Positions 708 through 28,457 of a DNA stretch of 64,000 bases are shown here, one piece after another. This stretch comes from Kofleriaceae bacterium (GTDB lineage Bacteria; Myxococcota_A; Polyangia; Haliangiales; Haliangiaceae), in contig CBDCCZ010000003.1 in the NCBI GenBank assembly GCA_965215005.1, positions 192,001-256,000 of the forward strand, written 5' to 3'. The position numbers and the translations under genes are program-made. A model generated the notes under the pieces. It did not search any database, was not told the origin of the DNA, and worked only from the letters and a program-made list of their open reading frames with translations. The number at the start of each line of letters is the position of its first letter. Position 1 is the stretch's first letter.

Positions 708-3700
708 CTATTGCCCGAGTCGGCGCGCGTAGGGATCGCCGTTGATGCGGCTTTGCGAGCGAAAGTCGATCCATCCGATTACAGCGGCGCGCATAAACCC
801 ACCACCGGTGGCGCGCGTGATCACCGGACTCAGCGCCTTGCCGGCGCCTTCATCGATGCGCTGATGCGTGAAGCTCCAGCTCATTCCAGCATCGATCGAG
901 CTGGTCGCAAACACGTGCTCGGTGGTGGTGCCTTGGCCGAGATCGCTCGTGTATGCGAGCACCACCACGTCGCCGCCGGCGTAGGCGATTGCCGGCCGCC
1001 GCGTCACGCCTACGAGCGGCATGCCCTCGGCCGAGGACGCGAGCAGCGGGTTAGCGAAGCTAGCGCCGCCGTCGGTCGAGGTACTGGTGAAGATCTGCGT
1101 CCCCTGCCGCCGGTCCTCCCATGCCACGAAGATACGGTCGTCAGCGCCGCCAGCACCCGCGGGGTCGACCGCGAGCGCTGGAGTGAACGACGCGGAGACT
1201 TCGCCGGCCGGATCATCGAGAACGCGCTCACTGCCAAAGCTTGCGCCGGCATCCGTGGAGCGTACGAACATCGCATCGGAGCCGCCCCCCTGCTGCCGCG
1301 CCAGGTCCTGCCACACCACGTAAACGCGATTGCCGGTGACGTTCATCTTGGGAAAGTCACTGTTGCGATTATCGCCCGCGTCGCCGTCGAGCCGGCGCTC
1401 GTTGGCCGCAGGGATGGCGGCCGTTGCGCTGTCGGAGAACGCGGCGTAGACGTTGGGAGTTGCGCCGCCGCGCGCCTCCCGCCAAACCCAAATGAAGCGC
1501 CCGCCGCTGGTGATACCAACCTGCGGCCTGCCAGCCAGCGGCGATGCACCACTGCCGACGTTGATGGTTCGCGCCGCCGCGTAGGTCGCGCCGCTATCGG
1601 TGGAAACGCGGCTCACGATGTTGCGCGTGAGCGTACCGGTGTTCAGCGCCTCCCACACGATAGCCACGGTGGCGCCGTCAGCGCTGATTGCAAGCTCGTG
1701 ATGGAACGCATCGACGGGACCGTCGAGCGCCGCGGTCGGAGCCGAAAAGCTGCTGCCGTTGTCACTCGAGGTTTGCACGCGTATATCGCGGACGCCGCCG
1801 TTGACGCTTTGGTAGGCAATGTAGATGCGATCGCTGCCCGCCGCCGGCGCCACCGCGATGCGCGGCTGTACCGCGGCGTTGTTGACGCTGGAGGTGAGGT
1901 TGATGATGTCGCCCCAGCTGGCGCCGCCGTCGGTGGAGCGGCGAAAGAAGATGTCGCTGGTGCCATTGGTGAGATCCGACCAAACCGCATACACGCGTTG
2001 GCCGACGGGCGAGCCACCGGAGGCCAAGGTCAAGTCGAAGCTATGGCGTGCCCCCGCAGCGGTGCCGAGCGCGCCGCCGGCCGCATCGAGTCGAACCTCG
2101 CCCGCAACGGTCGTGCAGCCTTCGCCGGCGTCGCCCTGACCATCACAGTCGCTGTCGGCGCCGTCGCCACAGATGTCGACCTCATCGACGATTTGCCCAC
2201 GGCAGACGCCGTAGACGCCAAAGGTGCAGGTTTGATTGCCGCTTACGCACTCGCCGATGCCAGCGGTTCCAGGGGTGCCGTCGTAGCAAGCGCGAACCAG
2301 GGGGCCACCAGCGGCGGCTTCGTCGATGGTGGCGTCGCAGTCGTCATCGCGGTTGTTGCAAGCTTCGGCCCGCGGAAGCGTCTGACCGACGCACGCGCCT
2401 TCAAAGCGGCCAGCGATGCACGCTTGCTCACCACCGCGGCACTCGCCCACTCCTTCGGTGCCGGCGGCGCCGGTGTAGCAAGCGCGAGTCACCCCCTCGT
2501 CGGCGGAGCCATCGCAGTCATCATCGACTGCATTGCAGACCTCGCTCGTTGGTCCCGGCGCGCCCATGCAGACCAGCCCGCCGCGAGAGCAAATGAGCTG
2601 GCCGCTGTTGGTGCACGCACCGGTTGCCACCCCACCCGGCGCGCTGTTGCACGCGCCCCCGGTATCGACGAGATTGTCATCAGCGACGCCATTGCAGTCG
2701 TTGTCGATCGAGTCGCAAATTTCGACTCCGGCGTTGGAGATGTTGCACGCGTACTCACACCCGTCGACGCTGCGGCCGTTGGCGTCATGAAAGCCGGGAT
2801 TGCAGTCGCGCGCTGGATCGAACGTGCAAGCGCCTGCGACGCAAGATGGGCTCGCGTTGGCAAATCGGCACACGGCTCCGCATTGCCCGCAGTTGCGGAC
2901 ATCGGTTTGGAGATCGAAGGCTTCATCGACGGCGCCATCGCAGTCGTTATCGACCAAGTCACACGCCTCTTGTCCGCCATTGGACGCGCTGCAGCGATAC
3001 TCACAGCCGTTGGCTTGCTGGCCGTCGATGTCGAAGAACCCCGGATTGCAGTCGGTTTGGCCATCGAAGGCGCAGACGCCCGCTCGGCATTCCGCGCCGG
3101 TTACTTGAAAGAATCCGCAGACCCGGCCGCACTGACCACAGTTGTTCTCATCGCCTTGCAAGTCAAACGCCTCATCGAGCTCGCCATCGCAGTCGTTGTC
3201 GATGCCATCGCAGGCTTCTTCCCCGGCGTTGGAGACAAAGCAGCGGTACTCGCAGCCGTTCGAGCTCTCATACGCGCCGGCGGTATCGCCATCGAGATCG
3301 ATGTTGCCGGGAAAACAACCGACGAGCTCACAAGCACCCTCGTTGCAAGTGCTGATGGCGCCGCTTCGATCGCAGAGGTTGCCGCAAGCGCCGCAGTGGC
3401 GAACATCGGCGGTTAAGTCGAAGGCTTCGTCGATCTGGCCGTCGCAGTCGTTGTCGAGCTCGTCGCACGCCTCGGGGAACACCACGCCGCGATCGCAATC
3501 TGCGATGCTGGCGTCGCCGCCGGCTCCTGCGTCGCCGCCCGAGCTCGTCCCACTATCGCCATTGCCAGCACCAGCGTCGCTCGAAGCGCCGGGCGCTGGA
3601 CAGTTGATGCAGTACTCGCTCACGTCGCAGCCGGAAACCAGAAGGCCGCAAACCGCGAGCATCACGAGCCAGCCGCGCCTTCGCCGCCGAGGCAGCGCCA

Positions 3701-6353
3701 AGGCCCAGAGAGCGATTCCCAGCGCCCACAGCGCACTGGGCGCACCGCCGCCAGCGCTGCAACCGCCGCCGCCCGCCGCCGTGACATATTCCGCCGGCGG
3801 CCCCGCGTCGGCAGAGTCGGGCCGGGCGAAGCAGTCGCCACCAGCACACAGCTGATCGCCTGGGCAGACGACTCCAAAGCAGGGATCTTCGACACACGCC
3901 CCCGTCTCTGGATCACAGGCCTCGTCCTCACCACACCTCACGCCCAGACACGAACTGATGACGCACTGGCCGCTCGCCCGGTCGCACACCTGGTCGATGG
4001 AGCAGTCGACGCTGCAGCCGGTCGCTTCGCACGCGCCGTCGACGCAGCGCTCCGCGACGTCGCAGTCGATTCCGGCGCAGCTGCCAACGCACTCGCCGCG
4101 ACGACAGAAGGCGTCGTCCTCGCAGCTCACCTCGAAGCACGGATCGCTCACGCAGGTGCCGGCTCGACACAGCTCATCTGCTGCGCAGATGCCGTCGACG
4201 AACTCGCAGGTGTTGGGCACGCACGCGCCATCCCGCGGCCGGCACACCAAGTCGGCCGCGCAGCTGACGCGGTCGCAAAGTGGCGTGCAGACGCCCTCGA
4301 TGCATTGGGTTGGCTCGCCGGCCTGATTGGGCACGCACGTGACGCCAAAACACGGATTCTGCACGCAGAACCCGTTTTCGCAGACGCGGCCGATAGGACA
4401 CTGGAACTCGCCCTCGGCGCACGCGGTCGCGCACTCGCCGGCCTCGCACACCCCGCCTTGGCACAAATCGCCATCGTCGATCACGCCGTCGCAGTCATCA
4501 TCTAGACCGTTGCAGATCTCGGTGCCGGCGGTGACGCCGCCAACGCACTGCAGCTCGCCAGCGATGCACGCCAGCTGCCCCGGCTCGCACACGCCGGGCC
4601 CATCGCCGCAGGTGCCACCCGCGTCTGCTGGCATTTCATCGATGATCCCATCGCAGTCATCGTCATCGCCGTTGCATAGCTCGATCGTACCGGTCACCGC
4701 GCCATCGCAGACCGGGCCGCTCGCGGTGCAAACGGTTACGCCGGGCTCGCAAATGCCGACGCTGGTACCGCAAGGCTGGCCGACATCGACGGGCGACTCA
4801 TCCACGCTTCCATCGCAGTCGTTGTCGCGGGTGTCGCAGGTTTCCGGAACCGGACCAACTTCGCCCGCGCAGTCCAAGGTGCCGCCAATGCAGATGGTCT
4901 CCCCCAGCTCACAGGTGCCGCGATCGGTGACGCCGCAGCTCTGGCCAACATCGATCGGCGCATCATCGATGACCGCATCGCAGTCGTTGTCGAGGCCATC
5001 GCAACGCTCGGGGCTCGGCCCTACGTCGCCGGTGCAGGTCGGCGCGCCGGCGACGCACGCCAGCGTGCCCGGAGAGCACTCGCCGAGGCTCGAGCCGCAG
5101 CTACCGCCAACATCAATGGGCGACTCGTCGACCATCCCATCGCAGTCGTCGTCGCTGCCGTTGCAGCGCTCGAGATTGGGGCCGGTGTCGTCGCTGCAGC
5201 TGAGCGCTCCGGCGGTGCAGACCTCAACGCCTTCCTGGCATAGGTCGGCGTCGGGGCCATCGCACGGGGCACCGGTGCCACTGGGGTTGTCGTCGATGGC
5301 ATTGTTGCAGTTGTTGTCGAGGCCATCACAAACCTCCGGTGACGGCGCCACTACCGAGGCGCACTGCAGCTCTGCTTGCTGGCAAATGGTCTCGCCGGCG
5401 CGGCATTCGCCAAATACGGCACCGTCGGAACAGGTTAGGTCGACGTTATCGCACTGACACGGCTCGCCCTCGCCGGTGAGGTCGGGGTCATCGACATCGA
5501 CCAAGTCATCGCAGTCGTTGTCGATGCCGTCGCAGACTTCGACCGTGGGCACGCACGGCGGCGTGAGACCATCGACGCCGATCATCATGTCTTCGAAGTC
5601 GTTGTCGCCGCCGCGAAACAGATCTTCGAAGCCAAAGTAAAATGTATCGGCGTCGAGCGCCGAGCTGTAGACGAGGTGGTGAACGAAGTCGCCATCGTCA
5701 TTAAGATCTTTTTGCGTAAAGTAGATCCGCCCAAAGAAAACATCCGCGCGGGTGAGATAATCGGCATCGCCGCAGCGGCCGCCGTTGCCCTCGGGTGTGA
5801 TGAGATAGAAGCCGATGAAGCCGCCGTCGTATCGGCCAGCGGCTTGCTCCGCCGCGAAGTCGACGGTGATCATCGCGGGAGGCTCGGCGTTGCGAACGTA
5901 CTGCGCGGGATTGCCGTGCTGATGGTCGGCGTGCGCCGCGGGATTGGCGGGATCATAGGCGTGGTTCTGCATCGGCGTCCCGCAGCCGAGAATGGGATGC
6001 AGGTTGCTGGCGCGCCCGACGAGGCTGCTCACGTCATCGCCGACGTTGTACCAACCAAAGCTGTTCTCGAAGCCAGCGCCTTCGGCGTGGTCGCGGAAGA
6101 CCACCGGCTGGGCGACGTTGGGCAAGAAGACCTCGGGCAACTCGGCAGCGTCTAGGCGAGCGTTCAACGGCTCGCCTAAAGAGTTGAGTACCGCTTGCAA
6201 GCGGTTGCCGACTGGAATGATGGTGCCGTCGACTTGCGTGATAGTGGCGTGCGCTGCGCTCAGACCGATAACGATCGAGCCCAGCGACGCGAGCGCCGCG
6301 TGCCTGCGTGTCCCCACCCGCGCAGGATACGACGTCGCGACCACTGGCCTCAA
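708..6353 (-). CDS. Giant Cys-rich surface protein: signal peptide, DUF4114-like domain, CDGxDNDCDG repeats, internal MYXO-CTERM plus lipobox, more Cys repeats, Asp-box (BNR) beta-propeller
   Basis: FGFEDLFRGGDNDFED; many E-x-C-[DN]-G-x-D-[ND]-D-C-D repeats; GGGGCS-TM-RRRRR-TM-LVSGC; six SxDxGx[ST][WFY] Asp boxes at the C-terminus. Confidence 0.88.
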   Translation of the reverse strand: MRPVVATSYPARVGTRRHAALASLGSIVIGLSAAHATITQVDGTIIPVGNRLQAVLNSLGEPLNARLDAAELPEVFLPNVAQPVVFRDHAEGAGFENSFGWYNVGDDVSSLVGRASNLHPILGCGTPMQNHAYDPANPAAHADHQHGNPAQYVRNAEPPAMITVDFAAEQAAGRYDGGFIGFYLITPEGNGGRCGDADYLTRADVFFGRIYFTQKDLNDDGDFVHHLVYSSALDADTFYFGFEDLFRGGDNDFEDMMIGVDGLTPPCVPTVEVCDGIDNDCDDLVDVDDPDLTGEGEPCQCDNVDLTCSDGAVFGECRAGETICQQAELQCASVVAPSPEVCDGLDNNCNNAIDDNPSGTGAPCDGPDADLCQEGVEVCTAGALSCSDDTGPNLERCNGSDDDCDGMVDESPIDVGGSCGSSLGECSPGTLACVAGAPTCTGDVGPSPERCDGLDNDCDAVIDDAPIDVGQSCGVTDRGTCELGETICIGGTLDCAGEVGPVPETCDTRDNDCDGSVDESPVDVGQPCGTSVGICEPGVTVCTASGPVCDGAVTGTIELCNGDDDDCDGIIDEMPADAGGTCGDGPGVCEPGQLACIAGELQCVGGVTAGTEICNGLDDDCDGVIDDGDLCQGGVCEAGECATACAEGEFQCPIGRVCENGFCVQNPCFGVTCVPNQAGEPTQCIEGVCTPLCDRVSCAADLVCRPRDGACVPNTCEFVDGICAADELCRAGTCVSDPCFEVSCEDDAFCRRGECVGSCAGIDCDVAERCVDGACEATGCSVDCSIDQVCDRASGQCVISSCLGVRCGEDEACDPETGACVEDPCFGVVCPGDQLCAGGDCFARPDSADAGPPAEYVTAAGGGGCSAGGGAPSALWALGIALWALALPRRRRRGWLVMLAVCGLLVSGCDVSEYCINCPAPGASSDAGAGNGDSGTSSGGDAGAGGDASIADCDRGVVFPEACDELDNDCDGQIDEAFDLTADVRHCGACGNLCDRSGAISTCNEGACELVGCFPGNIDLDGDTAGAYESSNGCEYRCFVSNAGEEACDGIDNDCDGELDEAFDLQGDENNCGQCGRVCGFFQVTGAECRAGVCAFDGQTDCNPGFFDIDGQQANGCEYRCSASNGGQEACDLVDNDCDGAVDEAFDLQTDVRNCGQCGAVCRFANASPSCVAGACTFDPARDCNPGFHDANGRSVDGCEYACNISNAGVEICDSIDNDCNGVADDNLVDTGGACNSAPGGVATGACTNSGQLICSRGGLVCMGAPGPTSEVCNAVDDDCDGSADEGVTRACYTGAAGTEGVGECRGGEQACIAGRFEGACVGQTLPRAEACNNRDDDCDATIDEAAAGGPLVRACYDGTPGTAGIGECVSGNQTCTFGVYGVCRGQIVDEVDICGDGADSDCDGQGDAGEGCTTVAGEVRLDAAGGALGTAAGARHSFDLTLASGGSPVGQRVYAVWSDLTNGTSDIFFRRSTDGGASWGDIINLTSSVNNAAVQPRIAVAPAAGSDRIYIAYQSVNGGVRDIRVQTSSDNGSSFSAPTAALDGPVDAFHHELAISADGATVAIVWEALNTGTLTRNIVSRVSTDSGATYAAARTINVGSGASPLAGRPQVGITSGGRFIWVWREARGGATPNVYAAFSDSATAAIPAANERRLDGDAGDNRNSDFPKMNVTGNRVYVVWQDLARQQGGGSDAMFVRSTDAGASFGSERVLDDPAGEVSASFTPALAVDPAGAGGADDRIFVAWEDRRQGTQIFTSTSTDGGASFANPLLASSAEGMPLVGVTRRPAIAYAGGDVVVLAYTSDLGQGTTTEHVFATSSIDAGMSWSFTHQRIDEGAGKALSPVITRATGGGFMRAAVIGWIDFRSQSRINGDPYARRLGQ

Positions 6354-24169: not shown

Positions 24170-24371
24170 CTCTGGCTGCGGGTGCGAGAATGTGCCTCAG
24201 CGCACGTCGCGGCGCTCGAAGCGCCGTGGGCAGGGAGGTGCGACTGCGCTCACCTTTGGTTACTGGGGTGTGACAGTGCGGCGTCAAGTTCGCGTTCGGG
24301 CGTCTCCTGACAGAGGCTGTCGCTGAATTACCCGTTGCTCATTGACACACTTTATCCCCATGGTCGTCCCC

Positions 24372-28457
<4,086 letters not shown>

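Follow-up and report, generated by a model that had tools for sequence, protein, structure and literature searches.

Does one uninterrupted bacterial reading frame give rise to one protein of the cell envelope or to two? This question is raised by an open reading frame (ORF) of 1881 codons in a contig of a Kofleriaceae bacterium (CBDCCZ010000003.1, positions 192,001 to 256,000). The whole stretch of 64,000 nucleotides that was analysed is called the window in the following. In the middle of the ORF product a sorting tag of the MYXO-CTERM type runs directly into a lipoprotein signal. In the bacterial lipoprotein pathway, Lgt and LspA process a lipobox signal that consists of a basic n-region, a short h-region and the lipobox itself. 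MYXO-CTERM tags are cleaved by MrtX in a Cys-dependent manner, and cleavage together with lipid anchoring has been published for TraA only, according to the available parts of a recent paper (mBio 2025, PMC11980579).

With a probability of about 0.65, we read the product as a precursor from which myxosortase and Lgt/LspA would release two lipid-anchored proteins. Such cutting is probable because the two parts occur in relatives in both forms, as a fusion and as overlapping genes. Judged from its orthologues, the in-frame fusion of the two envelope-protein genes is real, old and selectively maintained. The predicted membrane hairpin in the middle of the product is the MYXO-CTERM tag of the first protein joined to the lipoprotein signal peptide of the second.

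Results and Discussion

The minus-strand frame comprises 1881 codons with no internal stop. The recorded gene call starts at residue 4 (nucleotide 6344) and gives a protein of 1878 amino acids. A preliminary description of the locus, made from the letters alone, had reported tag, Arg run and lipobox in mid-ORF with no stop between them. Read letter for letter, the minus strand shows exactly this arrangement, and the translation of 3600-3830 (−), FARPDSADAGPPAEYVTAAGGGGCSAGGGAPSALWALGIALWALALPRRRRRGWLVMLAVCGLLVSGCDVSEYCINC, matches the letters given there. The observation is confirmed. Its interpretation, namely that a helical hairpin lets one ORF yield two separately anchored surface proteins, is supported as far as computation reaches. 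The features of the ORF are collected in Table 1.

Table 1. Features of the fused ORF and its surroundings in the window; residues are counted in the 1881-residue product and arrows mark predicted cleavage sites.
Feature	Residues	Nucleotides	Strand	Basis or remark
Whole ORF		708..6353	−	1881 amino acids + stop; stop codon 708-710; ORF translation
N-terminal Sec signal peptide (signal peptidase I type), end ..SAAHA↓TITQVDGT	4-36	6246..6344	−	by eye
Predicted mature N-half	37-865	3759..6245	−	domain models
DUF4114 (PF13448)	177-261	5571-5825	−	37.5 bits
Internal MYXO-CTERM-type tag GGGGC...RRRRR	861-893	3675..3773	−	hidden Markov model (HMM) + alignment
Tag Cys C865	865	3759-3761	−	
Helix 1	~873-887	3693-3737	−	
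Arg cluster RRRRR	889-893	3675-3689	−	
Internal lipoprotein-type signal, h-region + lipobox LVSG↓C909		3627..3674	−	RRRRR as n-region
Second hydrophobic stretch GWLVMLAVCGLLVSG	894-908	3630-3674	−	
GTGATG with out-of-frame TGA		3660..3665	−	TGA at 3664..3662
Lipobox LVSGC	905-909	3627-3641	−	
Predicted mature C-half, N-terminus CDVSEYCINC	909-1881	711..3629	−	
MXAN_6577-like Cys-rich repeats	962-1095	3069-3470	−	NF041328, 39.8 bits, below cut-off 100
BNR/sialidase-like domain	~1380-1881	711-2216	−	PF13088, 35.7 bits, threshold 31.4
vWA-domain protein, 412 amino acids		6403..7641	−	directly upstream of the fused ORF

Both halves are rich in repeats. The N-half contains 83 Cys in 829 residues and, besides DUF4114, carries Cys-rich repeats of the MopE type and further Cys-rich modules. 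MopE repeats beyond the MXAN_6577-like ones occur in the C-half, and the model of MopE-type repeats (PF11617) reaches 133 bits over 11 stretches of the whole ORF. The C-terminal domain was modelled as an all-beta propeller (pLDDT 80.5, pTM 0.85, from an alignment of six rows). Top matches of this model in the PDB are sialidases (Foldseek E ~1e-10, TM score 0.37-0.5, 10-15% identity). According to the model the domain has a sialidase/BNR-type beta-propeller fold, from which enzyme activity is not to be assumed. Neither the scans with domain models nor the structure model gave an OmpA match in the C-half.

When excised so that it ends with RRRRR, the tag scores 17.4 bits on TIGR03382 (GC_trans_RRR; cut-off 15.85). 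With downstream residues added, 16.1 bits are obtained. The tripartite anatomy is complete, consisting of GGGGC865, SALWALGIALWALAL and RRRRR, and its position is not C-terminal, as 988 residues follow R893 in the same frame. Since one of the two curated models is passed and all three parts are in place, the element is best regarded as a somewhat divergent MYXO-CTERM. Its earlier designation as a complete tag holds for TIGR03382 and for the anatomy and does not hold for TIGR03901, where it stays below the cut-off. A terminal tag near 28345-28457 had been named for comparison, and it is indeed present: the ORF 24342..28457 (+) ends with ...GGCGCRSTGG..LRRRRSC and scores 25.9 bits on TIGR03901 (cut-off 20).

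The same Arg run had been proposed to serve as the n-region of a signal for signal peptidase II that ends in LVSGC. The sequence agrees with this proposal. RRRRR is followed by 15 uncharged residues with LVSG↓C at their end, and LVSGC, together with the six uncharged residues that precede it, passes a pattern like PROSITE PS51257. The +1 Cys is in register with that of real lipoproteins (see below). The signal begins at residue 889 of 1881, i.e. not at the N-terminus. Residue +2 after C909 is Asp, a position that varies within the junction family.

Orthologues carry the same junction in frame. In 31 related genomes, the search with the C-half gave two full-length matches (genomes G017 and G001, both 60% identical), which lie in stop-free frames of ~1900 codons (1895 and 1954 amino acids). 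Altogether the in-frame junction was found in five ORFs of four other assemblies, namely G017, G001, G021 and, twice, G026. The proteins of G017 and G001 are 57-59% identical to the window protein in the N-half and 58.5-59% in the C-half. For the protein of G021 (2083 amino acids) the values are 42% and 37%. Full-length orthologues are collinear with the window protein from the cleavage site of the signal peptide through to the propeller, and this site, AxA↓T(V/I)TQ(V/A)DGT, is kept across the five orthologous ORFs (L011, L012, L013, L015 and L016). The junction region is only 39-47% identical to that of the orthologues, yet both Cys, that of the tag and that of the lipobox, and two Arg do not vary (6/6).

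In a larger set of 27 junctions of the C-x-V-x-P-F/Y-C family, the lipobox has G at position −1 in 23 cases, A in three and S in one. The uncharged stretch from the last basic residue to the Cys has a median length of 16 residues (range 10-21), and the loop one of 8 residues (range 3-17). Ten residues separate RRRR and Cys in G021. Ten residues are too short for a stable transmembrane helix, and the second stretch fits the h-region of a cleavable signal of signal peptidase II.

Relatives of the two halves also occur as separate genes. Two split pairs belong to the same family as the window genome. In one (L029, G006:C10) the upstream protein ends with ...GGGGGC...RRRRGQ, its TGA is overlapped by GTG, and the downstream protein starts VTRAIGLAAAALIAVAAAATSG-CDVNGYCINC. 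The other (L035, G316:C15) shows a GTGA overlap and the downstream start ...SMS-CNINEYCLNC. A pair of the same order (L033, G019:C63) has an ATGA overlap and the start ...GAAG-CSFDAYCINC, and a pair of the same class (L050, G385:C163) has TGA GCC ATG in the same frame and the start MRWSRLSILAFVALAVVAAG-CDVDPFCLHC. Besides its split pair, G385 holds a fused paralogue (contig C47). All four upstream proteins have ...GGGGC..RRRR.. and then a stop, and all four downstream proteins follow M/V..R..lipobox-C(D/N/S)xx(P/E/G/A)(F/Y)C(I/L)(N/H)C. Identity to the corresponding half of the window protein is 35-43% upstream and 31-42% downstream. Judged by their junctions, GTGA/ATGA overlaps or TGA-NNN-ATG, the split pairs are translationally coupled genes.

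Among the 120 listed homologues of the C-half, the 28 that cover at least 84% of it were considered. Ten are fused (36-53% identical; nine classified by script and P0075, which begins inside helix 1, by eye). Another ten stand alone as lipoproteins, each with a Met, an n-region and a lipobox of its own (28-33% identical; nine by script, P0146 by eye), and eight are cut at the N-terminus or otherwise uninformative. The mature N-terminus of the stand-alone lipoproteins resembles CDVSEYCINC and is mostly C-x-x-D/E/Q-A-Y/F/W-C-F/W-N-C. In the four split pairs as well as in the ten stand-alone lipoproteins, the +1 Cys aligns with C909. Whether homologues are fused or split had been suggested as a check, and both forms exist, the split form being a MYXO-CTERM protein directly followed by a lipoprotein.

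The relationship of the forms was examined with a quick maximum-likelihood tree based on the 320 residues that come first after the lipobox Cys. Of its 38 rows, 24 are fused and 14 are split or stand-alone. P0006, P0062, P0065 and P0071, which were missed by the motif pattern, and P0171 were left out. The distribution of fused and split forms takes five state changes, three of them forced by starred branches, compared to a mean of 11.5 after shuffling. The window protein belongs to a clade (SH-aLRT 92) whose 13 rows are fused without exception, and the split L035 is sister to the fused P0007 with a support of 98. On this tree, fused and split states have interchanged at least three times.

To capture the junction more widely, a profile of 85 positions was compared with 1.84 billion representative proteins, which gave 55 matches at E ≤ 1e-3. 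Sorted by script, 24 combine the internal tag with a second hydrophobic stretch that leads to a canonical lipobox, and 12 have internal tag and second stretch with no canonical lipobox, mostly with an AxA-type site instead; 17 have a terminal tag alone, as has one more, P0053, with a 13-residue tail, and P0035 was left unclassified, and these counts are not frequencies because the search favours full-length junctions. The fused matches cover unrelated architectures: orthologues of the BNR type (P0006, P0014), proteins with vWA, MopE ... and FGE-sulfatase-like parts (P0007, P0010, P0012, P0013, P0021, P0022, P0032), trypsin-like proteases (P0037, P0051) and proteins in which tag and signal are followed by an outer-membrane barrel/OmpA part (P0038, P0040, P0060). 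Three internal tags are found in P0023, and three internal tags plus a terminal one in P0009 (4029 amino acids).

Of 401 genomes of the phylum, 283 gave a profile match at E ≤ 1e-3, in most cases confined to the tag half. Among the 150 matches listed, besides which there were 812 more, at least 19 in at least 11 genomes span both halves without a stop, and one further match spanning both contains an internal TGA. Inspection of 30 loci revealed nine with internal tag and lipobox, eight with internal tag and second hydrophobic stretch, nine with a terminal tag, two ambiguous ones and two that were missed by the regular expression. A word-indexed protein search with the junction (residues 835-935 and near lengths) returned the window's own protein alone, since the junction is too divergent and too low in complexity for shared 5-mers. 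A search with a wide junction alignment picked up the pattern of the MopE repeats, C[DN]x[LVF]D[ND][DN]CD[GDT], at 38 loci, i.e. repeats and not junctions. Relatives from these loci are labelled Myxococcales, Nannocystaceae or Deltaproteobacteria.

The genome encodes the enzymes that such a precursor would need. A myxosortase core (NF040914, contig C47 of the genome) scores 112.5 bits at a cut-off of 100, which none of 14 control genomes exceeded. Lgt (119.6 bits, cut-off 118.9), LspA (93.8 bits, cut-off 73.95) and the secretin GspD (468.8 bits, cut-off 351) were also found. Approximately 20 ordinary terminal MYXO-CTERM tags were recognised by eye among 28 matches of a regular expression, a scan that is unspecific: three of its five "internal" and about eight of the 28 "terminal" matches lie in off-frames rich in Ala, Pro, Ser and Arg.

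From these parts the following course can be proposed. The N-terminal Sec signal would export the Cys-rich N-half until helix 1 acts as a stop-transfer sequence, and RRRRR would stay in the cytoplasm by the positive-inside rule. The second hydrophobic stretch of 15 residues would then restart export as an internal signal peptide, and the C-half would be exported via Sec. Lgt and LspA would lipidate C909 and cut before it, leaving the C-half as an N-terminally acylated lipoprotein that may come to lie on the cell surface or in a leaflet towards the periplasm. In analogy to TraA, C865 would be lipidated and myxosortase would cut after it. The N-half, lipid-anchored at its C-terminus, would be carried to the surface through the type II secretion system, as for TraA. 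A hairpin peptide of ~43 residues would remain in the inner membrane. Judged by anatomy, by conservation and by the correspondence between the fused and the split form, this appears to be the best-supported mechanism.

Alternative explanations

Several points speak against a precursor cut at two sites. Both cleavages are predictions, for the window protein as for its relatives, and we know of no case in which Lgt and LspA act on a signal peptide behind ~890 residues. On TIGR03901 the excised tag scores 18.3 bits, under the cut-off of 20, and for the whole protein of 1881 amino acids no MYXO-CTERM model gave a match at E ≤ 1. JDVT-CTERM (NF033191), a tag of other phyla, scores slightly higher with 21.5 bits, under its cut-off of 27, and was the only one to appear in the scan of the whole protein (E=0.013). 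Membership in JDVT-CTERM was rejected on account of this score and because the system, which includes MrtJ, is reported never to occur in Myxococcota (PMC11980579, available parts). The closest orthologues, those of G017 and G001, read ..APQAAC and fail the PS51257-like pattern at −3 and −4. The tree is quick, the sequence behind it is rich in repeats, 16 of its 35 inner branches are open and one row is very long. The read support for the window consists of contigs of one sample, probably the source of the assembly, at depths of 5 and 2.

Some of these points would equally suit a hairpin that is not fully removed. It would then act as a permanent two-helix anchor in the inner membrane with both ectodomains in the periplasm, or one site alone would be cut. 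Apart from the predicted nature of both cleavages, the TIGR03901 score and the lipobox PQAAC of the two closest orthologues, TraA lends weight to this possibility: its surface localisation is not completely lost without MrtX (PMC11980579, available parts), so uncut forms can exist. Nevertheless, residues that matter for processing only are conserved, i.e. the tag Cys in 6/6, the lipobox Cys without exception and G, A or S at −1 in 27/27 junctions. The second stretch shrinks to ten residues in G021, which falls short of a stable helix, and relatives make the halves as separate proteins, the fused and split states being interconvertible. We hold a hairpin that is not fully removed to be rather unlikely. 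It is very improbable that the fusion is real and yet non-functional or neutral, i.e. that the gene is decaying or that its read-through product plays no role. Long open frames do arise by chance in high-GC genomes, and a related locus of the same genome (contig C42) appears broken. Against this, the frame of 1881 codons is kept over its whole length, with 57-59% identity in another genus and ~40% in another family, with signal peptide, Cys patterns and propeller all conserved.

The preliminary description had itself pointed to an indel that restores a stop, and the out-of-frame TGA in GTGATG that it mentioned was located (Table 1). An insertion of one nucleotide, or a loss of two, between RRRRR and this TGA would hide the stop, and the locus would in truth consist of two overlapping genes with a GTGA junction as in G006 and G316. 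The TGA is 10 nucleotides from RRRRR and part of GTGA, the word used by real split pairs. TCGTGAT around it (3660-3668, −) is the stop/start overlap of the pair in G316 (TCG TGA / GTG ATT). Local indels or pseudogenes do occur in the assembly, since the C42 locus (~120.4-124.3 kb) shifts frame at least four times, and the reads are represented by the shallow contigs of one sample mentioned above. Within these, the stretches 3428-4100 and 3598-3987, covered by Logan contigs of two runs, agree with the assembly in every letter and contain no gap, a match that adds little alone because of its single, probably identical source and low depth. Run X3, with the same species label and from another study, does not cover the stretch. 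More telling are the five orthologous ORFs of four other assemblies, which are fused in frame despite different nucleotide sequences, and the clade of the window protein, in which 13/13 rows are fused. If the C-half started at GTG (V897) or ATG (M898), its Cys would be preceded by 11-12 residues, none of them basic, compared to 20-23 residues including Arg in genuine split relatives. Both starts were rejected for these reasons, and the C-half is left with no workable signal of its own. An artefact is thus scarcely credible. GTGATG may be the vestige of an ancestral GTGA overlap or a coincidence; an identity over 4-7 nucleotides may be chance, as the whole clade shares the fusion.

Comparison with known systems

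The window protein agrees with ordinary MYXO-CTERM substrates such as TraA in its Gly-rich motif with invariant Cys, its helix and its Arg cluster (PMC11980579 and 10.1101/2023.06.07.544157, available parts). Its genome likewise has a myxosortase core and many terminal tags. It differs in that the tag is internal, with 988 residues after it, and below the cut-off of TIGR03901. In the available parts of the preprint 10.1101/2023.06.07.544157 (Haft) the words internal, fusion and polyprotein are absent.

The nearest published case is MXAN_5598 of Myxococcus xanthus. It has an internal MYXO-CTERM and is likely a fusion of two genes, and its N-terminal part was proposed to be processed and anchored at the surface (PMC11980579, available parts). 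The same paper cites work showing that sorting tags function in the middle of a protein. A mid-protein motif is what MXAN_5598 and the window protein share. The C-terminal part of MXAN_5598 is an outer-membrane beta-barrel with OmpA, whereas that of the window protein is a Cys-rich lipoprotein with a BNR propeller. Proteins that resemble MXAN_5598 (one on contig C6 of the window's genome, P0038, P0040 and P0060) have an AxA signal of the signal peptidase I type after the tag, where the window protein has the lipobox directly. A second signal peptide, a hairpin and split or fused pairs are not mentioned in the discussion of PMC11980579, as far as it was available, and a literature search on MXAN_5598 gave nothing relevant beyond that paper.

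In archaea, a Tat substrate of ArtA in Haloferax volcanii carries a central PGF tripartite signal as a result of a strain-specific gene fusion, and its processing was demonstrated (FEMS Microbiol Rev 2018, PMC6098224, available parts). As in the window protein, a sorting signal of the C-terminal type was put into the middle of a protein by gene fusion. Tag and enzyme are different, the fused NifU domain is of a cytoplasmic type, and neither a second signal peptide nor a conserved family is involved.

With respect to the lipoprotein pathway, the window's signal has the usual basic n-region, short h-region and L-V-S-G-C, and homologues with the same type of mature N-terminus are ordinary N-terminal lipoproteins. 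The difference lies in its internal position and in its n-region, for which the sorting tag in front of it provides the Arg cluster. Another bacterial membrane polyprotein, the FbcH cytochrome b/c1 precursor of Bradyrhizobium, is cut at an internal signal peptide into two proteins. This resembles the proposed fate of the window protein; FbcH involves signal peptidase I only, yields respiratory proteins and has neither a C-terminal sorting tag nor lipid anchors.

Our literature search found no paper that joins internal signal peptide, polyprotein, lipoprotein and bacteria. An internal MYXO-CTERM that arose by gene fusion is already in print. New compared to the texts searched are the hairpin that leads directly from tag to lipobox (Table S1 of PMC11980579 may list more internal motifs), its conservation across a whole clade of DUF4114/MopE/BNR proteins, and the mutual replacement of coupled gene pairs and fused precursors.

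Related arrangements in the genome and the phylum

Two further loci of the window's own genome, both outside the window, combine a tag with a second signal. At C42:120373-124300 a tag-plus-lipobox junction, ..SGGCRAGGDSNGLTLVVLGLLGLLWPRRRFRFSRPLVALALLFASLAGC.., occurs in a homologue of P0046. This locus is a pseudogene or contains local assembly indels, as indicated by its frame shifts over ~3 kb. At C6:99661-99834 (−), a frame of 2140 amino acids contains an internal tag, ..GGGCSTGG..LRSRR, followed by a signal of the signal peptidase I type, ..TPAKA↓QQ, and a barrel-like C-terminal part. By its predicted parts, this ORF is an arrangement of the MXAN_5598 type.

The ORF 24342..28457 (+) of the window, whose terminal tag was used for comparison above, encodes a metallopeptidase of family M36 (fungalysin) with 1371 amino acids, PA and PKD domains and a lipobox-like N-terminal signal, ..LLAGC. 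Its terminal MYXO-CTERM lies at 28305-28454. Both ends of this protein would be anchored before processing.

A split pair of another family (L052, G380:C112) has the tag ..GGCGCRV..RRRRRR, then TGA GCG ATG, and after it MRALLVFALLLACAC. One codon separates the tag gene from the lipoprotein gene, and both are read in the same frame.

Some profile matches are composed of more than two parts. In P0009, P0058, P0023, P0039 and P0041, two to four units, each reaching from signal peptide to Cys tag, are arranged in series, and the tag helix runs straight into the next AxA-type signal peptide. The unclassified P0035 (95 amino acids) begins with the lipoprotein signal of the family and CEVDTYCPKC and ends with a MYXO-CTERM-like helix and RRRR. 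Only ~40 residues lie between its two signals.

The gene of the vWA-domain protein directly upstream of the fused ORF is of interest with regard to P0007, P0010, P0012 and P0013, in which a vWA domain forms the N-terminus of the N-half. The starts of these four proteins resemble those of P0024, P0036 and P0047 (by eye). The vWA neighbour suggests a further fusion or fission within the gene cluster of the window.

Conclusion

To our knowledge, there is hardly any record of bacteria exporting a polyprotein whose cleavage products are anchored separately. If both cuts occur, the window protein would be a natural substrate of myxosortase that leaves a large and easily detected C-terminal fragment. 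It was through the same property that the central PGF signal in Haloferax served to prove the processing by ArtA. The protein would also allow tests of whether Lgt and LspA act on an internal signal peptide and whether lipidation at the MYXO-CTERM Cys is related to Lgt. Such ORFs currently bear annotation names like "sialidase family protein", "Notch-like protein" or "MYXO-CTERM domain-containing protein", which hide the two mature proteins that are probably made per ORF.

Beyond this family, we lean slightly towards the view that the hairpin of tag helix, Arg loop and signal peptide is a general, reusable and cleavable linker with which Myxococcota make secreted polyproteins. If so, myxosortase would cut the linker on the outer side and LspA or signal peptidase I on the inner side, and one ORF would give, in a fixed ratio, two to four envelope proteins that are anchored separately. 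The family of the window protein would then be one among many lineages that toggle between coupled gene pairs and fused precursors.

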